IMG/VR virus record: IMGVR_UViG_3300020045_005903 | Span: 7,644 to 71,643 of that record | Reading direction: 5' to 3' (one strand) | From: a virus | Taxonomy: Duplodnaviria; Caudoviricetes | Length of the DNA stretch: 64,000 nucleotides | In this document: positions 1 through 63,603 of the stretch, piece by piece | Position numbering within the stretch: position 1 is the stretch's first letter | Layout: every line of letters begins with the position of its first letter | Made by a program: the position numbers and the translations under genes | Notes under the pieces: generated by a model | Told to the model about the DNA's origin: nothing | Databases searched by the model: none | What the model saw: only the letters and a program-made list of their open reading frames with translations

Positions 1-158
1 TCATTTAATGATTTGATATGCTCATATATATTCTATACCTTTATTCCATCTTAAAGTCTTTCATGTTGGACTTCATAGGTTATCTTTGGTTGGATAGCAC
101 AACTCCTTGGTTCACGCCAGGGATTTGTTGCTTATAATAATATCTATATCTTTGTCCC

Positions 159-884
159 ATGAAAAAAATTATCTATACAATCGTCGGGGTTATTCTCGTA
201 ATCCTTGGGTATTGGTTTATTAAAAAAGGTGAGACTACTCCCTTGCCACCCAAAAATCAAACAACAGAACTATCCATTGTCAATAGCACTAAAGACAGTG
301 TATTAGTATTCCTTACCCTGTCAGGCTATTCAGATAGTCTAGCGCCTTATTACATTCAAGACGTTAACGGAGTGTTTGGGATTACGGACAGTGGCCTTGT
401 TGGTAGTTTTTATGTTAAGGGATTTGATACACTATCTTACACGCCCGACTTAAGACTTTCCGGTAATCTTTGCTTTGGCACCCAACCGCTAAATTGTCCC
501 GATAGCTTGTGGAAGACAGGAACTAGCTTTTTTGAGTTTAACCTTAATTGCCCACAGGAGTCTCTTGATATAAGTTGTGTGGGAGGGGTGAGTAGCTTAA
601 TGGAAGTGAAATTGATCGGCGGTCCTAATTGGGTGGCGGCGCAATATCCTGATGTTAGAAATATTCACAATGACTCTATGTATAAGAATAGTAATCTAGT
701 TGGAGTGTTTCCTTATGGATGCACTAACTGTACTAATACTGACGGGAAACAACCTTGTCAAACACCTTCAGAAACGCCTGACTCTACACACATCTGTAAC
801 CCTACAAGGGCTAAGGATGAGAACGGCGGCAAGGTAGTATTGATATTTAAAGGCTACACTAATACTGTTATATGTAATAAATAG
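159..884 (+). CDS. Membrane-anchored/secreted Cys-rich protein, thaumatin-like (tentative)
   Basis: N-terminal hydrophobic segment; motifs LSIVNS, TSFFEFNLN and SLDISCVGG resemble thaumatin FTIVNN, TLAEFTL and YDVSLVDG; many Cys. Confidence 0.45.
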   Translation: MKKIIYTIVGVILVILGYWFIKKGETTPLPPKNQTTELSIVNSTKDSVLVFLTLSGYSDSLAPYYIQDVNGVFGITDSGLVGSFYVKGFDTLSYTPDLRLSGNLCFGTQPLNCPDSLWKTGTSFFEFNLNCPQESLDISCVGGVSSLMEVKLIGGPNWVAAQYPDVRNIHNDSMYKNSNLVGVFPYGCTNCTNTDGKQPCQTPSETPDSTHICNPTRAKDENGGKVVLIFKGYTNTVICNK

Positions 885-900
885 TTATATTTGTAAAGGA
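881..900 (+). repeat. 20-bp direct repeat copy 1 (ATAGTTATATTTGTAAAGGA), contains a Bacteroidota -7 promoter box
   Basis: Identical to 1288-1307; contains TATATTTG (TAnnTTTG). Confidence 0.85.
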
Positions 901-937
901 TTGAGCAATTAAGCCATCCGATAAAAAACATATAACA

Positions 938-1288
938 ATGAAAAGCAGATTAACTTTCGACCTAGACAGTCAAAACAAAGCAGTAATTCTCGCCAGAGTA
1001 GAATTGACAGAAGATGTTAGGGATAAAATAGCCAAACAGTTTCAAGAAAATTTCAGAACTAATGGTTCATTAGCCACGATAAGTTATTTTCCATCAGCAA
1101 CAGATAATTTAGAATTTCAAATAACACCTTATTCAGCAGACTTTAAAGACTGCCTAGAGTTAGCTAGTAATTTAAGCTACGAGCAAATGAATCAAATGAC
1201 AGAGGCCTTAAGATGGGAAAGGTTCAATAGAGATAAAGGAAATTTTACTTTAGGCTCAAAAATTAATCCACCAAAAAGTTATAAATAA
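938..1288 (+). CDS. Hypothetical protein
   Basis: 116-aa ORF with A-rich leader, flanked by 20-bp direct repeats. Confidence 0.75.
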   Translation: MKSRLTFDLDSQNKAVILARVELTEDVRDKIAKQFQENFRTNGSLATISYFPSATDNLEFQITPYSADFKDCLELASNLSYEQMNQMTEALRWERFNRDKGNFTLGSKINPPKSYK

Positions 1289-1307
1289 TAGTTATATTTG
1301 TAAAGGA
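1288..1307 (+). repeat. 20-bp direct repeat copy 2
   Basis: Identical to 881-900. Confidence 0.85.
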
Positions 1308-1322
1308 AGCCACATCACAACA

Positions 1323-1353
1323 AGCCCCTTACCCTAAAAAGTGAGGGGTTTTT
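1323..1353 (+). terminator. Rho-independent terminator
   Basis: AGCCCCTTAC/GTGAGGGGTT stem followed by T run. Confidence 0.65.
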
Positions 1354-1369
1354 GCTTGTTAATAATTTA

Positions 1370-1423
1370 TTTTCATTATTTTGCAACCTTTCTGTTTTAG
1401 TGGAGGTATAAGTAGTATATTTG
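1370..1423 (+). promoter_or_regulatory. Putative phage promoter (TTTCATTATTTTGCAACCTTT ... TATATTTG) upstream of cassette array 1
   Basis: TTGCAACCTTT at 1381-1391 recurs in several intergenic regions; TATATTTG at 1416-1423. Confidence 0.6.
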
Positions 1424-1469
1424 TAGCCCAACCAAAATGAAAAAACTAATCCTTTGCCTATTTAATTTC

Positions 1470-1599
1470 CCATAACGTACCGCAGGTTTATTTAGTGCGG
1501 GATTTAACAGATAAATTAACTTAAAAGCAGAAAATATGAAATTACTAAAATGGCTATTTGGGAGCAGGAAACCCGCATTGAATAAACCTGTTGTTAGCG
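1470..1599. other. attC-like site S1
   Basis: CCATAAC ... arms 1483-1501/1572-1590 (19 bp, 2 G-T) ... GTTAGCG; ATG of next gene lies in the loop. Confidence 0.8.
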
Positions 1600-1799
1600 G
1601 TAGTCTTTCTTTCAAGGAGCAAATGAAACAAGATATTATACCGAGAGTTTGGCAAATGGCTGAAAAAGAAAAAGAGCATTTGAATTGGTTGATAGATAAT
1701 AACGCACCTAAAGATATGGTTGAAACAAGTCAGCGTTATCTCAGCCATTATAGACAAAGACATAAAGAATATATTGAGTATTCGGATGGTCTGTCATAA
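1536..1799 (+). CDS. Cassette-borne hypothetical protein
   Basis: 87 aa; N-terminus (KPALNKPVVSGS) is encoded by the right arm of S1. Confidence 0.75.
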   Translation: MKLLKWLFGSRKPALNKPVVSGSLSFKEQMKQDIIPRVWQMAEKEKEHLNWLIDNNAPKDMVETSQRYLSHYRQRHKEYIEYSDGLS

Positions 1800-1805
1800 G
1801 ATTAC

Positions 1806-1899
1806 CGCTAACGTAAAAGCATTTATGTCAGGCGGGCATAGATGCAACTTTAAATAATAATGCAAGTGTCCGCCCGCTTGCATAAATGCAGTGTTAGCT
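1806..1899. other. attC-like site S2
   Basis: CGCTAAC-GTAAAA-GCATTTATG(T)CAGGCGGG ... CCCGCTTG-CATAAATGC-AGT-GTTAGCT. Confidence 0.85.
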
Positions 1900-1909
1900 G
1901 CCGTAATTT

Positions 1910-2233
1910 ATGATAAAAGTTTATATAGCAAGTCCATACACATTAGGTGATGTGGCAGTAAATGTCAAACTACAACTTGACACAGTAGATGAATTGATGA
2001 ACAAAGGGTTTGCACCTTTTGCACCATTATATTCTCACTTTCAGCACATAGCACACCCAAGACCTTATCAAGATTGGGTTAAGATAGATTTGGAGTGGGT
2101 AAAGGTTTGTGATTGCTTATTAAGGCTTGATGGCGAAAGCAAAGGTGCTGATGGTGAGGTCAGCTATGCAAAAGAATTAGGTCTGCCAGTATTTTATTCG
2201 ATAGACGATATGTGTCTGTATTATGGCAACTAA
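1910..2233 (+). CDS. Cassette-borne DUF1937/DUF4406-like (nucleoside deoxyribosyltransferase-like fold) protein
   Basis: KVYIASPY ... CDCLLRLDGESKGADGEVSYAKELGLPVF pattern; stop TAA lies inside the TAAC of S3. Confidence 0.7.
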   Translation: MIKVYIASPYTLGDVAVNVKLQLDTVDELMNKGFAPFAPLYSHFQHIAHPRPYQDWVKIDLEWVKVCDCLLRLDGESKGADGEVSYAKELGLPVFYSIDDMCLYYGN

Positions 2234-2320
2234 CGGTATCGGGCTTGGCGAAGGTGGGCTTGTAGGATGCTCAATTTTAGCAGGATGTTTCTGCCCACTT
2301 TTGCCAAACCCGTGTTATAA
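2228..2320. other. attC-like site S3
   Basis: AACTAAC-GGTAT-CGGGCTTGGCGAAGGTGGGC ... GCCCACTTTTGCCAAACCCG-T-GTTATAA. Confidence 0.85.
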
Positions 2321-2389
2321 GCTGGCTGCGGTTATTTACCGAAAAACTCAAATCGAAGCACTAAACAAAAGAATTAAAAAAAAGAAGGG

Positions 2390-3169
2390 ATGGAAATAAA
2401 TAAAATATATAACGAGAATTGCCTTGATACGATGGCTAAAATGCCTGATAAGTTTGTGGACTTGGTAGTTACTTCACCGCCTTACAATATGCGAACAAGA
2501 ATAAGGAACGGACAATACACCACAAGAGAGAAAAGCGAACATTTTAGCAAGAAGTATAAGCATTTTGACGATGCCTTACCGATAAATGATTTTTACGAAT
2601 TTCATAGCAGCGTATTGACCGAACTATTAAGAGTATCGAAAATTGTTTGCTATAACTTTCAGATAGTAACTGGAAGCAAAGAAGCGTTTTTTAAAATCAT
2701 TGGCGACTTTAATAAGGACATTAAGGATATTATCATTTGGGATAAAGGAAGCGGACAGCCTGCAATGCACGGAATGGTTTTAAATAGCTGCTATGAAATG
2801 GTATTGATATTAGAAGATGACAAAAGAGCAGGAAGGGCAATACAGAACGCTAAATTCAAAAGAGGCGAAATGAATAACATTTTGAGAATTGGCAGAGGCA
2901 AAAAAGTATCTGATGTTCACGGTGCAATTTTCCCTGAACAACTACCATTTGATTTGATAAACGCTTTTTCAGAAAAAGAAACATTGATTTACGACCCTTT
3001 TATGGGAAGCGGAACGACTGGATTAGTAGCAAGTAAATTAGGCAGAAAATATATTGGAAGTGAAATAACAGAAGAATATTGTAAAATAGCTGAAAATCGT
3101 ATTAAAGAGTGCGGTGGGCTTTTTTTTAATTCTTTTGAAACGGAATTGTCAAACGAAGCAGGAACGTAG
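2390..3169 (+). CDS. Cassette-borne DNA methyltransferase (N4-C/N6-A, beta class)
   Basis: Motif IV TSPPYN before motif I DPFMGSGTT; CLDTM/DLVVTS N-terminus; IGSEI. Confidence 0.9.
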   Translation: MEINKIYNENCLDTMAKMPDKFVDLVVTSPPYNMRTRIRNGQYTTREKSEHFSKKYKHFDDALPINDFYEFHSSVLTELLRVSKIVCYNFQIVTGSKEAFFKIIGDFNKDIKDIIIWDKGSGQPAMHGMVLNSCYEMVLILEDDKRAGRAIQNAKFKRGEMNNILRIGRGKKVSDVHGAIFPEQLPFDLINAFSEKETLIYDPFMGSGTTGLVASKLGRKYIGSEITEEYCKIAENRIKECGGLFFNSFETELSNEAGT

Positions 3170-3177
3170 CAGCTTGC

Positions 3178-3195
3178 TTATAACTATTATATGTA
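3178..3195. other. attI-like terminal site of array 1
   Basis: TTATAAC followed by TATTATATGTA with no hairpin; 3181-3195 is identical to 12600-12614. Confidence 0.7.
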
Positions 3196-3277
3196 CGCAG
3201 GTCAAGCCAACTAACTAAATATCAATAAAATAAACTGTTAAAAACGTTAAAAATTACAAAGCTACAAAAACAATATT

Positions 3278-3679
3278 GTGAAGCTCGACATCTATTCCCA
3301 AAGGCTAATAACCCAACTAGACTGGTTATATAAAGTATCAGAAGTGTTTATCGTGAATGGTAAATACGAAATGGATATTTGTGACGCAGATGTAAACAAG
3401 CCTTATTTATATGACGATATTTATGACCAATTAATTAAAGAAAATTTTAAGATAGAGTTTGCGCCGGAAGATAAAAATAAAATGTGGCAAATGGCTCAGA
3501 AATGCTTTATTCGTAATGAAAAACGTAACCCTAAAGCCACAGATGAAGTATTGCTGCACAGATATTATAAGAGCTACCTAGCTAAGAAATATGTGCTATC
3601 AAGATTACCTGAGAGAATGAGAATACACGACGAGGAAACGGGGGAAGAAATACGAAGAATAGAATTAATAATTAAATGA
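3278..3679 (+). CDS. Hypothetical protein
   Basis: 133-aa ORF, overlaps next start. Confidence 0.65.
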   Translation: MKLDIYSQRLITQLDWLYKVSEVFIVNGKYEMDICDADVNKPYLYDDIYDQLIKENFKIEFAPEDKNKMWQMAQKCFIRNEKRNPKATDEVLLHRYYKSYLAKKYVLSRLPERMRIHDEETGEEIRRIELIIK

Positions 3680-3873
3680 AAAAACTACACGTAAAAATAG
3701 GGCTGTCTAAAAAAGCAGAAAGGGAATTTGAAAGACTAGAGAAGCTAAAAGACATTCAATCAAAATGTCTCCACGCGGCAGAAAATGGTCAAATATCTTT
3801 ATCCGACACAATAAGGATTATGATGGCAGATAAAAAATCAGAGATTAAGAAAATCCTTAAAAAATATAAATAA
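3676..3873 (+). CDS. Hypothetical protein
   Basis: 65-aa ORF in tightly packed operon. Confidence 0.65.
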   Translation: MKKLHVKIGLSKKAEREFERLEKLKDIQSKCLHAAENGQISLSDTIRIMMADKKSEIKKILKKYK

Positions 3874-3875
3874 CT

Positions 3876-4355
3876 ATGGAAAAATACTACACCCCATTAA
3901 TAGAAGAGTTTCATTACGGGTTTCAGTTTGAATACAAACACCCTCTACAAGTTGCAGGAGAAGAAGCGGAGTGGGCTCTGTATGATTGGAGAAGTTTAAT
4001 GGCTACTATTACACTACACCCTAAAGGCATATCTATTGGAGGATTTTCAATAAAAGATGAATGTTTAAGGGTAAAATATTTGGATGTGGGAGACTGTGAA
4101 GAGTTGGGATGGAAACACATAGGCTCACAATGGTATGACTTAATAGAAGTGCCTGGTAAATTAGGGTATTGGCTTTATGTGAGGTTTAGAAAATGTGGTG
4201 ACGAATCTTTTATCAAAGCATACCGTTACGACCCAAAGGAAAAGAACAAAGATACGGAAGGGGAAAATTACCAAGAAGAAGATTTTTTGTTCAGTGGTAA
4301 CATAAAGAACAAAAGCGAGTTTAAAAAATTAATGATTCAATTAGGGATTAAGTGA
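3876..4355 (+). CDS. Hypothetical phage protein
   Basis: 159 aa; KYYTPLIEEFHYGFQFEY N-terminus resembles a pattern recalled from Bacteroidota phages. Confidence 0.7.
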   Translation: MEKYYTPLIEEFHYGFQFEYKHPLQVAGEEAEWALYDWRSLMATITLHPKGISIGGFSIKDECLRVKYLDVGDCEELGWKHIGSQWYDLIEVPGKLGYWLYVRFRKCGDESFIKAYRYDPKEKNKDTEGENYQEEDFLFSGNIKNKSEFKKLMIQLGIK

Positions 4356-5989
4356 AAAGAGAAATAAGATATTATCAACAAGACGCTTATAATGCCGTTA
4401 TGTCCGCCAAAGCAAAGGGTCATAAACGAGTATTGATTACTATGCCTGGGGGTACAGGCAAAACATTCACTTGCGCTAACATAATCAAAGACTTTGGTCG
4501 CAAATGTTGGATTACACACGAAGAGTCCCTTGCCGAACAAAGCGCTATTGCCATCCTTACAGAAATGGAAATTTTACCCGAAGCAGATATTATTGAAGCG
4601 GTAAATGCTCACGGAGGATTAGTAAATTTACTTTCTAAAAAACCATTTTACTTAGGCGAAAACGCTAGAATAGTTTGGGAAAACGTCGGGATGGTTAAGG
4701 CAGACATATTTGATATTGACAAGCCATTAGTAATATGCTCAGCGCAAACTTTGTGGCGGAGACTCGATAAAATACCTAAAGATTGGTTTAGTGTTATTGT
4801 TTGCGACGAGGGGGATTTATTCGGATCGGTTAGCTTTAAGGCTCCTTTAGATTACCTAACTCCTGAATTAATTATCGGAGCTACCGCAACTGCATTTCGC
4901 GGAGACGGGATGTTAATGGAGGATATTTTTGAAGCATTAGTTTATGACTACCCTATTGAACAAGCCATAAAAGACAAATACCTTACCGAAATTAACGCCA
5001 TTGTTGTTCGCACATCCGCAAACCTAGACGAAGTTCATTCTTTTGGAGGAGACTTTAATCAAAAAGAATTGGTTGAAAAGGTGAATACTTTAGAGCGAAA
5101 TAATTTAATCGTTAATAAGTATATTGAGTATTGCAGCGGACAACAGTTTATTTGTTTTGGCGCAGACGTACAGCACGTAATAGACCTCCACGAAGCCTTT
5201 AAAGAGAAAGGAATAGTTACAACCTATGTGGTTAGCGATAAAGATAAAATGGAAATTGGAACTGACCGCAAAACTATTGTGCGAGATTTTAGGGAGGGTA
5301 AAATAATGGGACTTGTAAATTATAATATTTTTAGTGCCGGATTTGATGTTCGAGATTGCGGATGTGTAATTTTAGGCTGCCCGACAAAATCTAAAAGAAA
5401 GTTTTTACAACAGCTATATAGAGTTACAAGATTAAAAACCGAAAAGTTTGTAAATAAGTTCGGGCAAATAGGAACGGTTCTCGATATTGTTGATGGCACT
5501 TCTAAGCATAAATTAATTAACACTCACGAACTAGACAAAGGTAAGCCAATAGAAGATAGGGTGTTTGTTTCTAATGCAAACAAGCAATTATTAATTGAAG
5601 CTAGGGTTGCTAAAGACAAGGTTTTTGTTACTAATTACAGAAAAGAAGACAAGGTAGTTGATTTATTTAAATTGCCGCTAATTAAGATTAGCGACTCAAT
5701 GAGAATGGGAGAAATGGCTACCGAAGCTCAGCTAAACGCAATAGCTAAATGGGATTATGATATTGTAAATACCGTTTATACAAAGCGAATGATTAGTGAG
5801 ATATTCGGCAAACAAGAAGCTACTGCAAAACACATTTCGTTTTTGAAATGGAAGGGATATGATACGAGTGGATTTGTAAGTGTGGCAGAAGCGGCGGCAG
5901 CAAGTAAAGAGATTAAGCTAAGAGAAGAGAAGTTAGAGAGAGATAAGAACCAAAACAACATAAAAAATAATTTACCATTTAAATTTTAA
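4352..5989 (+). CDS. Superfamily 2 (DEAD/DEAH-like, ResIII/UvsW-type) helicase
   Basis: Q-motif RYYQQDA, Walker A MPGGTGKT, DEGD, GATATAFR, FSAGFD, QQLYRVTR. Confidence 0.88.
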   Translation: MKREIRYYQQDAYNAVMSAKAKGHKRVLITMPGGTGKTFTCANIIKDFGRKCWITHEESLAEQSAIAILTEMEILPEADIIEAVNAHGGLVNLLSKKPFYLGENARIVWENVGMVKADIFDIDKPLVICSAQTLWRRLDKIPKDWFSVIVCDEGDLFGSVSFKAPLDYLTPELIIGATATAFRGDGMLMEDIFEALVYDYPIEQAIKDKYLTEINAIVVRTSANLDEVHSFGGDFNQKELVEKVNTLERNNLIVNKYIEYCSGQQFICFGADVQHVIDLHEAFKEKGIVTTYVVSDKDKMEIGTDRKTIVRDFREGKIMGLVNYNIFSAGFDVRDCGCVILGCPTKSKRKFLQQLYRVTRLKTEKFVNKFGQIGTVLDIVDGTSKHKLINTHELDKGKPIEDRVFVSNANKQLLIEARVAKDKVFVTNYRKEDKVVDLFKLPLIKISDSMRMGEMATEAQLNAIAKWDYDIVNTVYTKRMISEIFGKQEATAKHISFLKWKGYDTSGFVSVAEAAAASKEIKLREEKLERDKNQNNIKNNLPFKF

Positions 5990-9247: not shown

Positions 9248-9451
9248 ATGGAAAAAACAATCAGTAACTCATCCCAAGTCACTCATATTAAATGGGCAGA
9301 CAAAATCCTTACAGTAACATTTGTAGGAGATAAGAAATACGAATACCTAGAAGTTCCCCAAAGTATTTACGATGCCGCGATTGCCGCCGAGAGCATAGGA
9401 AAGTTTTTGAATAGTGAAGTGAAGAATAAATTTAAATTTAATAAAGTATGA
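9248..9451 (+). CDS. KTSC-domain protein
   Basis: SSQVTHI..LTVTF..KYEYLEVPQSIY..AESIGKFLNSEVK; start placed at 9248 rather than 9206. Confidence 0.85.
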   Translation: MEKTISNSSQVTHIKWADKILTVTFVGDKKYEYLEVPQSIYDAAIAAESIGKFLNSEVKNKFKFNKV

Positions 9452-10455
9452 GCAAGAAACCAACCACAGAAGTAACGGTATCTAATCCTAAACTTCAAAA
9501 AGACCTAGAGTTAGTCCAATCCCTACAAACCCAAGTGGACACCGTAGGAACTCAATTACTGCAAGTAAAAGTGATGGATGATTCCACACTATCAATCTGC
9601 CAACAAAACCTCTCTAAAGTCAACTCTATAGTTAAAACTATCGAAGAGAAACGAGTGGAACTTAAAGCTCCCTACCTTGAAGCCGGTAAACAAATCGACT
9701 CCCTTTGCAAGTCTATTACCGACCTAGCAGTGAAAAGTATTACCCACGCTAAGTCTGAAATAGCTAATTGGGAAAATGCTAGGTTAGCACTCGCCGCAGC
9801 AGCACAAGCTGAGGTTGACGCAAAAGCTAAAGCTGAAGCTGATAAGATCGCCGCAAATGAAACTCGTAAAAAAGGAATATTAGACTTTATTTCAACTACA
9901 CTTAAACCTTACCTTCAATCTACTTATGACTCTTTAAAATCAGCAGAGGACTGTGATGTATTCTTAGCTAAGATTAAAAAAGACTTTCCTGGAGAAGCCA
10001 AGTTTCAAGAATATTTACAGGACGCTAATCAAATTAGAGATAATTACATAGATTTAATAAATGGTAAAAAAGCTCAATTTAGTGCGGCGGCGAATATCTC
10101 TGAATCTGAATTAGCTTTAATGAAAGAGAAAGAAAGATTAACCCTAATGCAACAAGAACTTGACAATGAAAAATTAAGAGTTAAGCAGCTAGAGGAGTAT
10201 GCTAAATTAGAGAGAGAAAGAAAAGCTGCTGAGGAATTAGCAGAGCTAGAAAAAGCTAAATTACAAGCGGCTGCAGGCCTAGAGAAAACTAAAGGAGTTA
10301 GATACATTGATAAGTTTGAGGTGATAGATTTTGATAAAGTGCCAAGAGAATTTTTATGTGTAGATGAGGCTAAAGTTAAAGCTTATCAAAAGGAGAATAA
10401 AATAGGAGAGATTACCGGAATTAGATTTTTTAAACAATCAAGCATAGTAGCCTAA
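9448..10455 (+). CDS. Coiled-coil protein, DUF1351/Gp157/Gam-like
   Basis: Long coiled coil; KRVELKAPYLEAGKQID; C-terminal DFDKVPREFLCVDEAKVK; stop TAA forms the TAAC of S4. Confidence 0.55.
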   Translation: MSKKPTTEVTVSNPKLQKDLELVQSLQTQVDTVGTQLLQVKVMDDSTLSICQQNLSKVNSIVKTIEEKRVELKAPYLEAGKQIDSLCKSITDLAVKSITHAKSEIANWENARLALAAAAQAEVDAKAKAEADKIAANETRKKGILDFISTTLKPYLQSTYDSLKSAEDCDVFLAKIKKDFPGEAKFQEYLQDANQIRDNYIDLINGKKAQFSAAANISESELALMKEKERLTLMQQELDNEKLRVKQLEEYAKLERERKAAEELAELEKAKLQAAAGLEKTKGVRYIDKFEVIDFDKVPREFLCVDEAKVKAYQKENKIGEITGIRFFKQSSIVA

Positions 10456-10569
10456 CGGTTTGCACATTGGCGTTGTTGCCACAGAATTTAATTAAAAACA
10501 ATAAACTTTAATATTATGACAAAAGTATCAAACGAAGAGCAAAGCAATAACGCCAATGTGCTGTTAGGT
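10450..10569. other. attC-like site S4
   Basis: GCCTAAC (RYYYAAC) ... arms 10462-10479/10544-10561 (17/18 WC, 1 G-T) ... GTTAGGT (GTTRRRY). Confidence 0.9.
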
Positions 10570-10824
10570 GAAGTTACATTGTGTGTAGGCTTCAATGCTC
10601 ACCGATTAAAAGAGAATGACGATTATCACAAAAAAGAATGTGATTTTGTGAAAGCCATTAACCAAGAGATGAAATATAATAAAAGCACTTTAGCTCAAAT
10701 GGTGAACCATCCCGACCACAAAGAATGGCTTGAAGAAAATGAGCAAAAGATTGTGTTAAGCGTGATACAATGGTTAGGAACGCCAGTAGGACAGGGATTT
10801 TTGGAGAAGGTGGCAAAAATGTAA
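10516..10824 (+). CDS. Cassette-borne hypothetical protein
   Basis: ATG in the loop of S4; SNNANVLLGEV is encoded by the right arm and core. Confidence 0.75.
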   Translation: MTKVSNEEQSNNANVLLGEVTLCVGFNAHRLKENDDYHKKECDFVKAINQEMKYNKSTLAQMVNHPDHKEWLEENEQKIVLSVIQWLGTPVGQGFLEKVAKM

Positions 10825-10828
10825 TTTC

Positions 10829-11257
10829 ACCTAACGTTTTCGGGCTAAGAGAAGTAAAACCCTTTAGAGCGGTGGGGGATTTCATCGCTCAAATTAAATA
10901 TAAATAACTCAAATGGAAAAAACATTGAGCAACACAACAGCAAGCCAAGCCAAAGACAACGTGAAAGACATCGTGTTTTGGGGCAATGGCGACACCTTCA
11001 AATTAATTAGCAAAGCATCATCCAAAAATGAAGGTTGGATGAAATCTTCAAAGGCAATGGAAATTGAAGGTGTAGGATGCGTAGTGCAAGTTACCACCCA
11101 ACAAGGTGAGAATATTGCAGAGGCGGTAACTTTTGTACCTAATGTAAAAATTGAGGAAACAAAAGGTGATGATGGAGTGGTAACTTCTCGTAAGTTGATT
11201 GCCATTTAGTACGGTGCGTGGGCAAAGGGTTTTATTTCTTCTTAGCCCGTGTTATAA
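10829..11257. other. Giant attC-like site S5 with a gene in its loop
   Basis: ACCTAAC ... arms 10841-10865/11224-11249 ... GTTATAA. Confidence 0.8.
10913..11209 (+). CDS. Conserved phage hypothetical protein inside the S5 loop
   Basis: 98 aa; GWMKSSKAMEI..GCVVQVTTQQG..AEAVTFVP; AT-rich leader. Confidence 0.8.
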   Translation: MEKTLSNTTASQAKDNVKDIVFWGNGDTFKLISKASSKNEGWMKSSKAMEIEGVGCVVQVTTQQGENIAEAVTFVPNVKIEETKGDDGVVTSRKLIAI

Positions 11258-11296
11258 GTCAGGTGGGCATTTTCGCCCACTTGCGTTAAACAATAT

Positions 11297-11402
11297 GTTA
11301 GTGGTAGTGCTTTAGAAGTATGCCCTGGCTGTAAAACGAAAAATAGACATTGGTACGCAAAAGATTATTGGTGTTGTGCATTTTGTTAGCATTACCGCTA
11401 AC
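11297..11402 (+). pseudogene. Mini-cassette remnant with a start-less Cys-rich reading frame
   Basis: Ends GTTAGTGGTAGTGCT/AGCATTACCGCTAAC are complementary; frame VSGSALEVCPGCKTKNRHWYAKDYWCCAFC* has no in-frame ATG. Confidence 0.5.
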
Positions 11403-11474
11403 GTTTTGCAGCTAATGGCTGGTGGCTTTTATAGGCTGTTAGTTTGTGCCACTTGCCATTAGGTGCTGTTATGT
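11396..11474. other. attC-like site S6
   Basis: CGCTAAC-GTTTT-GCAGCTAATGGCTGGTGGC ... GCCACTTGCCATTAGGTGC-T-GTTATGT. Confidence 0.85.
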
Positions 11475-11535
11475 TGGTGCGCTGGCAAGTGTGTGGGGCA
11501 GTTTTATTTTATTAATTTTTAAAAAAGCGAAGGAA

Positions 11536-11808
11536 ATGAAGTTAACATTATTACAAAGATTAATTGAGTTTGTGATTCAATTTAAATACAAACATAATTT
11601 ACAGCCGACCTACAACTATAAGGTTGGTGACAAGGTGAAATATAACTGGAAAGGAAAAGTTATGCTTAGACCAGTTATAAACGATAGAGCAGAGGATGTT
11701 TTGGTAATAAATGAAGTAAAGCATAAAAGGAATGAGTTTATCAACTATCAAAATACAAGAACAAAAAAACGAGGATGGTTAGATGCTTACTGGTTAAAAC
11801 GTGCGTAG
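11536..11808 (+). CDS. Cassette-borne hypothetical protein
   Basis: Start moved from 11446 (inside S6) to MKLTLLQ after AAGGAA; YKVGDKVKY motif. Confidence 0.7.
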   Translation: MKLTLLQRLIEFVIQFKYKHNLQPTYNYKVGDKVKYNWKGKVMLRPVINDRAEDVLVINEVKHKRNEFINYQNTRTKKRGWLDAYWLKRA

Positions 11809-11837
11809 GCTTTTAAAAATTAATAAAATAAAATTGA

Positions 11838-11926
11838 ACATAACGGTTACAGCTTGCCGATAGTAAGGCAAATACCCGAAAAAAATAAAAAATCATTTGC
11901 CTTATTTTGGCAAGGTGGTGTTAAAT
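11838..11926. other. attC-like site S7
   Basis: ACATAAC-GGTTA-CAGCTTGCCGATAGTAAGGCAAAT ... ATTTGCCTTATTTTGGCAAGGTG-GT-GTTAAAT. Confidence 0.85.
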
Positions 11927-11968
11927 GCAGTGCGGACTTAATTAATAACTAAAAAATAAATAAATAAA

Positions 11969-12193
11969 ATGGCTGACTTAAAAACATTAGTAAAAGACAA
12001 CAAGGTGAAATTCGATTTTTACCGAGCAGGAGTAATGTATTACACCGTTACATCCGAAGAAAAAACATATCGCTTTCCTGTGCCACTTGAGGATATAGGA
12101 GATGCGACATTACTTGCAGAAGATAAAGCCATTTTATTTATGCGTTACATACGAAAGGCAATTAATAGCAATGAGCTTCAAACAGTGCAGTAG
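11969..12193 (+). CDS. Cassette-borne conserved phage hypothetical protein
   Basis: 74 aa; FYRAGVMYY..FPVPLEDIGDATLLAEDKAILFMRYIRKA. Confidence 0.8.
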   Translation: MADLKTLVKDNKVKFDFYRAGVMYYTVTSEEKTYRFPVPLEDIGDATLLAEDKAILFMRYIRKAINSNELQTVQ

Positions 12194-12199
12194 CATTGC

Positions 12200-12328
12200 A
12201 TTTAACGTTCGATGCTTGTGGCAGGTGGCATTAAAAGCACAAATGTAAATTAACCGATAAAGTAAAATTGAAAAACAGAATTTAATATTAACCGCAGACC
12301 GCCACTTGCCTACAAGCATTTGTTAGTG
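12200..12328. other. attC-like site S8
   Basis: ATTTAAC-GTTC-GATGCTTGTGGCAGGTGGC ... GCCACTTGCC(T)ACAAGCATT-T-GTTAGTG. Confidence 0.85.
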
Positions 12329-12350
12329 GTCTGTTTAAAAACAAAAAGCG

Positions 12351-12578
12351 ATGGCAGACTTAGAAAAAATTAGACAAGCACAAATGATTGCAGGTGAAAA
12401 CGCTGTGATTGCAGGATTAAAAGCAAAAGGATTGCTACCTAAAGATGAACAGAGCGAGGACTCGTTGCTATTTTTCAACTTATTTAGAGAAGTAAGAAAT
12501 GAAATAGCAACGGAGGAGGGCTATGTGCTGCAAGATGCAATACGAATAACATTTGATAGATGGATGAAGCGTGGGTAG
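12351..12578 (+). CDS. Cassette-borne hypothetical protein
   Basis: 75-aa ORF between S8 and the attI-like site. Confidence 0.75.
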   Translation: MADLEKIRQAQMIAGENAVIAGLKAKGLLPKDEQSEDSLLFFNLFREVRNEIATEEGYVLQDAIRITFDRWMKRG

Positions 12579-12596
12579 GCTTTGTTTTTAAATTGC

Positions 12597-12614
12597 CACT
12601 AACTATTATATGTA
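12597..12614. other. attI-like terminal site of array 2
   Basis: CACTAAC-TATTATATGTA; 39 bp upstream of the recombinase ATG; 15-mer shared with 3181-3195. Confidence 0.75.
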
Positions 12615-12653
12615 GGATTAACTTGTAATGTATTAAAAATTAAATATATAATT

Positions 12654-13487
12654 ATGGAAATTCCAAGATGGCACGAAAGATATTGTATGGACTCAGCTTT
12701 AAAATATCCAAGTAAAGCAACCCAAGAAAACTACCAAAGTACAGTTTTAGGTTTTTTGCATTACTTTAAAAATGATGTTGACCCCTCTCACATAAAAACG
12801 GATGACATTAAAAAGTGGCTCTTAACTTTTGAAACGATTAATACTCGTAATCATAAATTATGTGGTATAAAATCCTTTTATCAAATTACCGTTGGGATGC
12901 CTTTAAAATTGGATAAAATACCATTCAGCAAAAAGGACAACAAGCTACCGGAAATTTTAGAGAGAGAAGAGATACAGTCATTATTAAAAGTTTGCACAAA
13001 CACAAAACACAAATTAATAATTACAATCCTTTATGCTTGCGGACTAAGGATAAGTGAAATTTTAAATCTTAAATTAATTCACATTAACAAAGATACCATT
13101 GATATTAAATGTGCTAAAGGCAGAAAAGATAGAATAGTTCAATTGCCAACGAGGGTTAAGCAAAGAATTGACGAATATACTTTGGAGTATAAGCCTATTG
13201 AGTATTTGTTTAATGGTCAGTTCCCCGAAAAAGAATTAAGATATAATGAAAGGTCTGTAAACGAATTTTTAAAAAAATATGCTACGTTAGCAGGAATAAA
13301 AACCCACGTTCATGCGCATAAAATTCGTCATTGTTATGCCACCCATACTTTAGAAGATGGAACAACCTTGCCATTTTTACAAGAAATGCTTGGACACAAT
13401 AGTCCTAAAACTACATCAATATATATTCACACATCGAGGCGATCAATTGCAAGACAAACGTCTCCCGTTGATGGAATGGATTTTTAA
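12654..13487 (+). CDS. Tyrosine recombinase (XerC/D / integron-integrase-like)
   Basis: Catalytic set GLRISE, KGRKDR, HKIRH, LGH, TSIY; 277 aa. Confidence 0.95.
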   Translation: MEIPRWHERYCMDSALKYPSKATQENYQSTVLGFLHYFKNDVDPSHIKTDDIKKWLLTFETINTRNHKLCGIKSFYQITVGMPLKLDKIPFSKKDNKLPEILEREEIQSLLKVCTNTKHKLIITILYACGLRISEILNLKLIHINKDTIDIKCAKGRKDRIVQLPTRVKQRIDEYTLEYKPIEYLFNGQFPEKELRYNERSVNEFLKKYATLAGIKTHVHAHKIRHCYATHTLEDGTTLPFLQEMLGHNSPKTTSIYIHTSRRSIARQTSPVDGMDF

Positions 13488-13489
13488 CA

Positions 13490-13768
13490 GTGGCAAGAAG
13501 ACTTAAAATACCCGATGAGCTATTAATCCTAAACCCCACCTTAAACAAGAAGGAACTAAGGACTATCCTAAATGTTATCCTGAATAGCCGCCGGAATAGA
13601 ATGCGTCAAGCCTACATATTTGACATAAGATTACCTAGCTTAGGGAGAATGAGGTCTAATGGTAATAAGGTACATAAACACAACAAAAAGACATTGAGTA
13701 GGGACAGGAAAAGAAAGAGAATTGAAACTAAAACTAATGACTTAAAGAGAGTTAACCTATTATGGTAG
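13490..13768 (+). CDS. Basic hypothetical protein
   Basis: 92 aa, Lys/Arg-rich. Confidence 0.6.
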   Translation: MARRLKIPDELLILNPTLNKKELRTILNVILNSRRNRMRQAYIFDIRLPSLGRMRSNGNKVHKHNKKTLSRDRKRKRIETKTNDLKRVNLLW

Positions 13769-13772
13769 AATT

Positions 13773-13817
13773 ATTTTCATTATTTTGCAACCTTTATTAA
13801 AATAAGTAGTATATTAG
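13773..13817 (+). promoter_or_regulatory. Putative phage promoter
   Basis: ATTTTCATTATTTTGCAACCTTT...AAGTAGTATAT, nearly identical to the 1370-1420 element. Confidence 0.6.
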
Positions 13818-32462: not shown

Positions 32463-32507
32463 ACTAGTTATACAAAGTTTAAGTTAAAAGGTTGCAAAAT
32501 AATGAAA

Positions 32508-62314: not shown

Positions 62315-63603
62315 ATTTCAATCTTGTAATAAAATAACAAAACTCCAAAATATTACAAATCTGTAATAACCACCCAAAAAAATTTTATAATTTTTATATA
62401 CCCGAAGGGGGTTATATGGGGTGTTTTAGCGTTTCGATTTTGAAGTGCCTTGTGGGGGGGCTTGTTTTTATGGTTTGGATTGTTTTGAAGTTTATTAGGA
62501 TGGTTTTTTTGTTTATTGGTTTTTTATTAGCTTGTTGTTTGTTTTATGGTTCCTGTATATAGGTATGGTATAAATTAGGTTAGATTATGCCGCCGCCCCA
62601 TAATTTACAAATTTGAAAGATAAACCGGTTATATGCTTCGCATGCTTAGTTAATCAATATCCTGGTTAACATTGGCCGCGATCTTATCAGCTCACTATCT
62701 ATATTACAAACTTGTAATAAAACAGAGGTCTATTGATTTTATTACAAACTTGTAAGACGCGCGGACAATACCGGCTTATTTAGAATTAGTCTATATTACA
62801 AACTTGTAATACTTTGGCACGATATTATATTATTTAGAACCATTCTAATCTTATTACAAATTTGAAATAAAGCATATTTATTGAAACCTTTCAACTTTGT
62901 AATACGTATAAACAGATATAACTAACATTAAAACCGGCCGCAAATAACAATAAAACAGCCCATTTACGGTGAACTAACGTACAAACTGAGTGAGTGGCGC
63001 AAATAATCAAGCCCAAACCACTTAATGAGCGAGTAAACAAATTAAAAACAACCAAATAAACCAACTAAAACCCCCATATCATGAAAGCAATAACAGAAGT
63101 ATTTAACCAGGAATTTGTCCCAATGGACATAGACAGAACCGTAATTCTCATTATAAGCCTATTGGACAATAGCCTGCAGTAAGAATATGTATAACCAACC
63201 CTTGTGAGTATAAAGTGTATTAAAGGGGGATTATATAGGTAATATAGGGGTAATAGGGAAGTAAATAAGTAATAGTATAAACCAATTAAAATAATAGAGA
63301 TATGTATACAGTTATAATGAGTCACCCTAATAAGGTTAGTTTTAGTTTTAAGATAGATGGTATTGATAGTTGGTATATAGAAGGATTAAGGAGATATGAA
63401 AGAATGGGATTAATAGGAAGGTATTATATTAGTTGTGGTATGTTCTGTAATGTAATAGGGTAATATTAGTAAGATTAGCCGCCGCGCTAAAAAGCTAAAA
63501 TGTGATAAAATACGTTTATTACAGAATTGAAATAGTGATGAGGTGCAAATATTACAAGTTTGTAAGAAAATAGAAAAGTTTAAATATATTACAAATTTGT
63601 AAG
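62315..63603. repeat. Cluster of about 11 palindromic ATTACAAnnTTGTAAT-like boxes in the non-coding strand-switch region
   Basis: Copies at 62315, 62352, 62604, 62703, 62741, 62795, 62853, 62889, 63518, 63551, 63588. Confidence 0.8.

Follow-up and report, generated by a model that had tools for sequence, protein, structure and literature searches.

The 15-nt sequence TAACTATTATATGTA, which closes arrays of gene cassettes in the phage genome analyzed here, very probably serves as the docking site for an integron-like system whose Xer-type recombinase is devoid of the additional domain (AD) of integron integrases. We put the probability that it is a recombination substrate equivalent to attI, at which cassettes enter and leave, at about 0.8; this estimate was reached by sequence analysis, with no biochemical or genetic test. 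The virus record, IMGVR_UViG_3300020045_005903, comprises 71,643 bp and is 94% complete. The window, i.e. the whole stretch of 64,000 nucleotides that was analyzed, corresponds to its bases 7644-71643, and coordinates are those of the window unless the record or another contig is named. What we propose would be an integron-like gene-cassette system of a Flavobacteriia-type phage. A cassette would be a one-gene unit headed by a hairpin (ATTGCnnnTAAC, a bulge of 4-5 nt, a variable stem-loop, 1 nt and GTTA) and ending in the next TAAC. A Xer-like recombinase of 277 aa would carry out strand exchange at the TAAC box, which reads G^TTA on the complementary strand, and when the partner is TATTATATGTA instead of a hairpin, the cassette would be inserted at, or excised from, the array end adjoining TATTATATGTA. 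Binding and catalysis by this recombinase are inferred, and so are the action of the hairpins as folded single strands and the cut between TAA and C.

Small genes alternate with imperfect hairpins in two arrays of the window (1473-3184 and 10453-12603), each hairpin having TAAC on its left and GTTA on its right. Read along the coding strand, a site consists of TAAC, 4-5 unpaired nucleotides (usually G and then a T-rich stretch), a variable stem, a loop, an arm, 1-2 nt and GTTA. Folding predictions pair TAACG with TGTTA and leave a bulge of 4 nt on one side only. Eight such attC-like sites are present in the window and one upstream of it, and a hairpin-site search of the window outside the arrays returned only weak matches at the level of noise. 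The sites and the cassettes that they head are as follows.

1473..1596, plus strand: attC-like site heading cassette 1 of array 1 (TAAC, 5-nt spacer, stem to stem, 1-nt spacer, GTTA)
1809..1896, plus strand: attC-like site heading cassette 2 of array 1; cargo at 1910-2233, nucleoside 2-deoxyribosyltransferase-like
2231..2317, plus strand: attC-like site heading cassette 3 of array 1; fold z = -4.0
2318..3184, plus strand: motif-proximal cassette body of array 1; N6/N4 DNA methyltransferase at 2390-3169
10453..10566, plus strand: distal (first) attC-like site of array 2; begins in the stop codon region of the core gene 9448-10455
10832..11254, plus strand: attC-like site, a box-framed hairpin with a whole ORF (10913-11209) in its loop
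11399..11471, plus strand: attC-like site heading a cassette with an ORF ending at 11808 (probable start 11537); fold z = -4.5
11841..11923, plus strand: attC-like site with longer spacers, heading a cassette with the ORF 11969-12193
12203..12325, plus strand: attC-like site heading the motif-proximal cassette of array 2; ORF 12351-12578

These elements fulfill the description of attC-type sites, namely imperfect hairpins with ..AAC and GTT.. boxes in which structure and not sequence is conserved. Short inverted repeats surround each gene and extend outward from GTTA and TAAC, a signature that would be expected if one continuous site per cassette was split on insertion. The flanks of the methyltransferase (MTase) cassette form such an inverted repeat (GTTATAAGCTGGCTGC / GCAGCTTGCTTATAAC), and the ends of the last cassette of array 2 (GTTAGTGG / CCACTAAC) are complementary. 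Apart from the N6/N4 DNA methyltransferase and the nucleoside 2-deoxyribosyltransferase-like protein, the cargo consists of ORFs without known function. The loop of the first site of array 1 holds the start of the longest frame of the next ORF, and this site is 88% identical to one in L135/L051. The cassette headed by the site at 10832 ends in a degenerate box, CTTGCGTTAAAC (11276-11287); the ORF in the loop of this site encodes 98 aa, and in L120 the same arms enclose a different, shorter ORF. The stop codon of the core gene 9448-10455 lies inside the first TAAC box of array 2 (..GCC TAA C). A homolog of this gene is found downstream of the recombinase in the more distant L130 and L134, and the neighborhood of the array therefore differs in these loci.

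All cargo ORFs of the window are read towards the motif, and cargo and recombinase are co-directional. A third array, which is inverted, contains a single cassette, whose polarity towards its motif copy is the same as in the other two. Uniform site polarity was observed more widely: in 28 loci, 92 strict hairpin sites lie upstream of the recombinase in the sense orientation, whereas antisense sites number only 1 upstream and 3 downstream, and a single sense site lies downstream. When the minus strand is considered, the layout consists of the recombinase gene running leftward, TACATATAATAG^TTA, and then the cassettes, each closed by a hairpin, which is the geometry of a classical attI. The elements at the array ends are listed below.

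3181..3195, plus strand: docking motif copy 1, an 'orphan' without an adjoining recombinase, closing array 1
12600..12614, plus strand: docking motif copy 2, adjoining the recombinase; its TAAC (12600-12603) is the crossover box of every cassette end
12604-12614, plus strand: constant attI-like part of copy 2, TATTATATGTA, 11 nt
12615..12653, plus strand: leader from the motif to the recombinase ATG, ~12 nt variable and then A-rich; family consensus AATAAAATCAA
12654..13487, plus strand: XerA-like tyrosine recombinase, 277 aa (Pfam PF00589, E = 1e-32), starting 40 nt after copy 2

Both copies in the window match TAACTATTATATGTA exactly, and a third exact copy, inverted, is found at 4906-4920 on the minus strand of the record, 2.7 kb upstream of the window. 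Each of the three lies directly 3' of the TAAC box that closes the last cassette. No hairpin follows the motif at any of the three copies when folding is compared with that of shuffled sequences (z = +0.9, +0.6 and -1.5), while internal sites do fold (z = -4.0, -2.0 and -4.5). As regards rarity, 110 15-mers are present at least twice in this 36%-GC genome, against ~25 in Markov shuffles, so two copies are not unusual, and the weight of the observation therefore rests on their position. Presence in three copies is rare, being limited to only 4 repeat families in the genome vs 0 in 20 shuffles. An exact scan of viral contigs for the 15-mer gave more than 113 single matches, which by our estimate corresponds to chance for ~60 Gb and is uninformative alone; six of the contigs were found again by the recombinase search. 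The motif is only weakly self-complementary (10/15 positions by our count), and no sequence common to the motif and to the hairpin arms adjoining TAAC could be seen in the conservation profile. A near-match at 1280-1294 on the minus strand was rejected as a docking site, as it has no cassette box and is part of a repeated promoter-like element, TAGTTATATTTGTAAAGGA. A second TAAC, which in the window and in loci L120 and L122 follows the first by 19 nt, was considered as an accessory repeat and rejected, as it is not conserved in the wider family.

The protein encoded at 12654-13487 is the sole tyrosine recombinase in the virus record. The nearest NCBIfam models are of the archaeal XerA type; the integron integrase model TIGR02249 was matched in two stretches with 141 bits, vs a cut-off of 265. 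Similarity to solved structures is about the same for XerA (4a8e, 5hxy) and for VchIntIA (2a3v). The alignment with XerA is continuous from end to end, and that with VchIntIA is broken at IntI residues 177-201 and has more gaps elsewhere. Superposition of an AlphaFold model (pLDDT 85) spans 276 columns with XerA, compared with 306 for 2a3v. From the break in the VchIntIA alignment, the score below the TIGR02249 cut-off and the superposition of the model, it follows that the enzyme is without the additional domain of ~35-40 residues (I2 helix) that defines integron integrases. The family alignment shows no variation at R132, K155, H222, R225, H248 and Y257, and we assign these residues as the catalytic set. 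A small, very basic ORF of 92 aa (13490-13768) lies directly 3' of the recombinase gene; considered as a possible family-wide partner, it was found to be conserved only in the closest relatives (L120, L121, L123 and L170). A preliminary description of this DNA had reported that both arrays end in an identical 15-mer abutting the last cassette, with no hairpin behind it, and this was accurate: the matches are exact at both positions, and the absence of folding extends to the third copy. It had also taken the 15-mer as a candidate attI, a site that in integrons lies next to a divergently oriented intI. This reading is supported, with corrections: the enzyme is not IntI, its gene is co-directional with all cargo genes, which point towards the site, and only one of the three copies adjoins it.

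Close homologs of the recombinase number in the hundreds (50-86% identity, ~275-280 aa), many of them on phage-sized contigs. A search for related viral loci with the single protein found nothing, and a profile search based on an alignment matched 268 viral contigs. Conservation of the motif next to these genes is directly observed. It was scored in the 58 viral loci in which the 5' end of this gene is complete (the proteins being 37-86% identical), and 53 of them carry it with no more than 3 mismatches; two more carry obvious variants. By our estimate, ~0.01 occurrence per locus would be expected by chance. The 3' end of the motif is separated from the recombinase ATG by 39-42 nt, by 56 nt in one clade, and in a few loci the motif lies farther upstream. 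Its consensus is TAAC-TAY-TATATGTA. In 45 non-redundant loci, positions 1-15 carry 0.6-2 bits each (most of them 1.3-2; the weakest are positions 6-7, the A and Y of TAY), and the profile is at background from position 16. To the left, in the variable cassette end, A-T-T-G-C-nnn-TAAC is conserved, with ATTGC at -7..-3 and an invariant T at -6; to the right, only the A-rich leader near the ATG is conserved. In a relative whose recombinase is 86% identical, the array occupies the same genomic place, contains other cassettes and has the end CTAACTATTATATATA, and the array end of a 71% relative is TTAACTTCTATATGTA.

The position of homology breakpoints provides evidence that this junction takes part in recombination. 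Nine contigs from different metagenomes have the identical motif and the recombinase, with 96-100% identity over 900 nt rightwards from the motif. Their left flanks fall into four unrelated classes (~25% identity), homology ending 0-3 nt left of TAAC. Loci L134 and L135 have cassettes A-D in common, 98-100% identical and in a different order, with every block bounded by TAAC boxes; after the TAAC of cassette C, L134 continues with gttctggcgg, belonging to the next hairpin, and L135 with tattatatgta of the motif. Similarly, the MTase cassette of the window (2313-3184) has a counterpart, 99.3% identical over 872 nt, among the internal cassettes of L124, a locus with a recombinase of only 56% identity. 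This identity stops at 3184, the C of TAAC, and is followed by a hairpin in L124 and by the motif in the window. Pieces of array 2 were found in contigs of four unrelated metagenome studies, with ends at 10453, 10831, 11402/3, 11844 and 12203, all of which are TAAC boxes; at 10453 contig homology begins, and at 11844, the C of TAAC, it stops. In a groundwater contig, the last cassette (12315-12603, with five differences) is followed by other sequence after 12603. One contig has 965 other bases in place of 11285-12202, and in one TTATAAC follows 11284. The whole array was recovered from no public run, assembled contigs only being considered, and stretches of 9400-13500 without contig cover carry no meaning. 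Cassettes are thus observed as discrete units, delimited at the core box and reshuffled into varied order and context, as mobile cassettes should be, with two of ~15 breakpoints at GTTA. Replacement or deletion of a terminal cassette needs a crossover at the terminal TAAC, on the other side of which stands the motif, and the motif junction itself is therefore implicated as a substrate. The earlier proposal that the 15-mer is the primary insertion site gains support from the homology breakpoint at TAAC and from the joining of the same cassette either to a hairpin or to the motif. Its corollary, that the motif occurs upstream of homologous recombinases in other phages, agrees with the 53 of 58 viral loci. 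That the newest cassettes are the MTase cassette in array 1 and 12351-12578 in array 2 is still an inference; for the MTase cassette there is some support in its 99.3% identity to a cassette of L124 at only 56% identity of the recombinases.

Several events do not fit a strict integron model. Two breakpoints lie at GTTA and not at TAAC, one at 2313 (compared with L124 6555) and one at 11467 (run X1). L124 joins a 93% copy of the array-0 hairpin of the window genome to a 99.3% copy of the array-1 methyltransferase body, and hence hairpin and gene can be reassorted. Exchanges restricted to the ORF, within constant cassette ends, were detected at 11535>11801 and 12354>12580. In a groundwater contig, the arms of 10832-11254 are present without the loop ORF (joint 10888>11230). 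The breakpoints at GTTA and the ORF-only swaps indicate that homologous or other recombination also reshapes the arrays. In addition, the same kind of cassettes occurs in phages with neither recombinase nor motif (Polaribacter phage P12002L and the mumin phages), and these observations together imply that other routes, or enzymes of the host or of a co-infecting phage, act as well.

Metagenome contigs in which the leader and trailer of a cassette were kept and the ORF was swapped include these two exchanges restricted to the ORF (11535-11801 and 12354-12580) and one at 10305-10416. These pairs of leader and trailer look like 'cassette frames' with exchangeable coding parts. In Flavobacterium phages mumin6-1 and mymlan6-1 (L004/L005), the locus 4250-5060 contains four methyltransferase genes separated by hairpins of the same kind. 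The 55-nt 3' end of the MTase cassette of the window is common to a different MTase gene in the mumin/mymlan phages; it is not in a coding frame and belongs to the last of their four methyltransferases. There, TAAC is followed by TACAATATTACATG, with no recombinase nearby, and it is possible that TACAATATTACATG is a diverged docking site.

The origin of the two orphan copies is less clear. Copies 1 and 3 have 19 nt in common, consisting of the motif and then CGCA. Copy 1 is followed at +41..55 by a leader-like word of 15 nt, ATCAATAAAATAAAC, for which an identical word precedes the ATG directly in the leader of L173. Behind copy 3, a stretch of 26 nt has 92% identity to the site that adjoins the recombinase in L171, and still farther on a stretch of 13 nt matches the first codons of the L120 recombinase. 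Such short, A-rich matches are suggestive, and not proof, that the orphans may be duplicated docking sites which lost the recombinase gene. No extra copies of the motif were found in complete relatives, each of which has one copy only; use of the two orphans is thus not supported by comparison, and their use in trans is an inference.

Distant homologs of the recombinase (35-42% identity) are encoded in assemblies of Flavobacterium, Chitinophagaceae, Bacteroidales and other Bacteroidota. Judged by alignment lengths, they are also without the IntI insertion, and several of them have arrays built of the same type of site as neighbors. Of 22 such chromosomal loci, 13 show the array end ..TTGCnnnTAAC followed by T-W-R-T-W-TATATG, placed ~90-105 nt past the 3' end of the recombinase gene. 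Chromosomal cargo ORFs occupy the strand opposite to that used in the phage and point away from the site, which is the arrangement of classical integrons. A related motif hence keeps its relation to the hairpins while the transcriptional context changes, which argues for a role in recombination over a role as promoter. No cassettes common to the window arrays and the chromosomal loci were detected by blastn. Chromosomal loci with such arrays include L285, L238, L224, L268, L221, L247, L275, L277 and others, with Flavobacterium aquidurense as an example. Criteria of the IntegronFinder type probably miss these arrays as complete integrons. With only a slight preference, we favor the broader view that Bacteroidota and their phages hold a second, undescribed lineage of integron type. 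Such a lineage would have AD-less XerA-like recombinases and an 11-nt docking site (TAAC followed by TAYTATATGTA in phages and by TWRTWTATATG in chromosomes), with the cargo flipped in phages, where one genome could contain several docking sites served in trans by a single recombinase. If true, this would mean capture of hairpin cassettes without the domain that is regarded as the key innovation of integron integrases.

Could the conserved sequence be no more than a promoter or another 5' regulatory element of the next gene, with the arrays merely stopping where a core gene begins? The motif is AT-rich and TATA-like, keeps a constant spacing of ~40 nt to the recombinase ATG and is followed by a same-strand gene at all three copies; promoter-like repeats of the phage contain TATATTTGTA, which resembles TATATGTA. 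Nevertheless, this explanation is very unlikely in our opinion. The -7 promoter consensus of Bacteroidota is TAnnTTTG, to which the motif shows no match, and the variable cassette end that makes up the upstream DNA leaves no possibility of a properly spaced -33 element. Moreover, conservation begins exactly at the crossover box, terminal-cassette replacement demands a crossover at the terminal TAAC with the motif on its other side, and the chromosomal motif keeps its position relative to the hairpin even though the recombinase is on the other side and the cargo is transcribed away. A dual role, as docking site and as part of the recombinase promoter, cannot be excluded, as the motif sits where a promoter could lie.

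Another possibility is that the motif is a passive boundary, its 11 bases being conserved as a gene-upstream region, and that cassettes move by hairpin-by-hairpin or homologous exchange, perhaps with the help of host enzymes. It is difficult to reconcile with the drop of conservation to background right after position 15, though the leader runs for 40 nt, or with the two orphan copies, which keep all 15 bases and have little else in common. Four different terminal cassettes joined to an identical right side, and a 99.3%-identical cassette ending exactly at the junction, point in the same direction. We consider this possibility improbable, notwithstanding that P12002L and the mumin phages, without recombinase or motif, carry the same kind of cassettes and that ORF-only swaps and breakpoints at GTTA boxes reveal other recombination routes. 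Finally, the idea that the phage is temperate, with the motif as its attP core and the enzyme as its lysogeny integrase, is hardly tenable. An attP has constant phage DNA on both sides of the core; here the left side is always a cassette end and varies among otherwise identical phages, so this requirement for a temperate Int/attP pair is not met. The presence of three copies in one genome, and an enzyme that is short, Xer-like and without an arm-binding domain, are equally at odds with it, in spite of the facts that phage att sites usually adjoin int genes and that no other tyrosine recombinase is encoded in the genome.

The docking-site reading places the phage arrays close to integrons, the textbook gene-capture machines of bacteria. 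Like classical integrons (class 1, Vibrio; VchIntIA 2a3v), the arrays are composed of one-gene cassettes and imperfect hairpins with boxes of the RYYYAAC / GTTRRRY type, in which structure is conserved and sequence is not; crossover takes place at one box only in most events, and cassettes are reordered between relatives. A constant non-hairpin site stands beside the recombinase gene and is joined to the first cassette at G^TT, which is what defines attI, although so far this can be said from nucleotide sequence alone. The differences are also substantial. The phage recombinase, about as close to VchIntIA as to XerA, is unlike IntI in being without the additional domain, and does not qualify as an integron integrase sensu stricto. 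Unlike in classical integrons, the phage cargo points towards the docking site and the recombinase is co-directional with the cargo; consequently, a hairpin precedes every cargo gene, and the cargo is out of reach of any Pc-type promoter located at attI. In an integron sensu stricto, cargo reads away from attI and is expressed from a Pc promoter at that end; the cargo of the window does not have this orientation, and that of the chromosomal relatives does. Furthermore, the constant part is only 11 nt long, with no evident repeats of the DR1/DR2 type known from classical attI, three docking sites occur in one genome, and the host of the system is a phage.

Single-strand recombination of attC was attributed by Escudero et al. 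(2020; PMC7790495) to the I2 helix, i.e. the additional domain, of integron integrases. As this domain is absent from the phage enzyme, a single-strand mechanism can be proposed for it by analogy only. For recombination of a folded attC bottom strand with a double-stranded attI, the sole argument is an indirect one, i.e. the lack of common sequence between the motif and the hairpin arms adjoining TAAC. Use of a folded hairpin as substrate by a Xer enzyme has a precedent in XerCD acting with CTX phage. The recombinase resembles XerA (4a8e/5hxy) in its Xer-type fold and length and in end-to-end alignment. Unlike in Xer/dif systems, there is no single dif-like palindrome for dimer resolution, and the motif is tied to arrays of variable cassettes: in place of one palindromic 28-bp dif, a non-palindromic 15-nt motif is found at array ends, combined with an enzyme of Xer-like fold. 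The occasional exchange at both kinds of boxes in the phage arrays recalls the layout of pdif modules of Acinetobacter plasmids, in which genes bounded by inverted Xer-type sites are reassorted between replicons. The pdif sites are 28-bp double-stranded XerC/XerD sites with no intervening structured hairpins, and we know of no constant docking site beside a dedicated recombinase in such systems.

By the criterion of the IntI domain, all three arrays would count as clusters of attC sites lacking an integrase (CALINs), yet a recombinase, albeit not IntI, adjoins array 2. Integrase-less attC clusters of this kind were described in virulent phages, including P12002L, by Qi et al. (2023; PMC9892861), who demonstrated recombination of one such phage site by IntI1 at G/TT in E. 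coli and identified no phage recombinase or attI (PMC9892861). The arrays reported here are similar to the P12002L CALIN in having same-style hairpin sites between methyltransferase genes, and differ from phage CALINs in having a dedicated recombinase family and a conserved docking motif, P12002L being without either. A full-text literature search revealed no description of this recombinase family or of its docking site. According to IntegronFinder 2.0, complete integrons are almost absent from Bacteroidetes (PMC9024848), and our results suggest that an entire family of elements, belonging to a major bacterial phylum, escapes the current tools, which require the IntI domain to call an integron. 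The 15-nt site, together with the Xer-like recombinase, turns a descriptive 'hairpin array' into a testable system with an enzyme, a donor site and a target. Such a system would also explain how Flavobacteriia phages swap accessory genes, such as those for methyltransferases, within a population and between distant phages.

The Polaribacter Freya phages were considered as members of the family and rejected: their recombinase is 29% identical, and CTAAC is located ~50 nt before the integrase gene, but the motif is absent. The boxes of the Freya hairpins are in reversed order. Among the near-identical isolates Freya_1 to Freya_10 (MT732463-MT732472; L200), the start of the integrase gene shifts from 95 to 4192 while genome length changes from 43,978 to 48,920 bp, which suggests variable cargo upstream of this distantly related recombinase.

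Repeated elements of other kinds are also present in the phage genome. A 21-nt element, TTTCATTATTTTGCAACCTTT, occurs three times (1371-1391, 13775-13795 and, on the minus strand, 32487-32507), each time ahead of a gene block, with one of the copies heading array 1; probably it serves the phage as a promoter or regulator site. The element TAGTTATATTTGTAAAGGA is repeated at 884-904 and 1288-1308, after two stop codons, and contains a perfect Bacteroidota -7 box (TAnnTTTG); it is followed by a terminator-like hairpin with a T run at ~1321-1352. Finally, the record contains numerous repeats of the palindromic words ATTACAAAYYTGTAAT, close to each of its two ends and at two places in its interior (window 62353, 62702-62810, 63550 and 17891; L006 60-115 and 7218); these words are candidates for operator or origin iterons.
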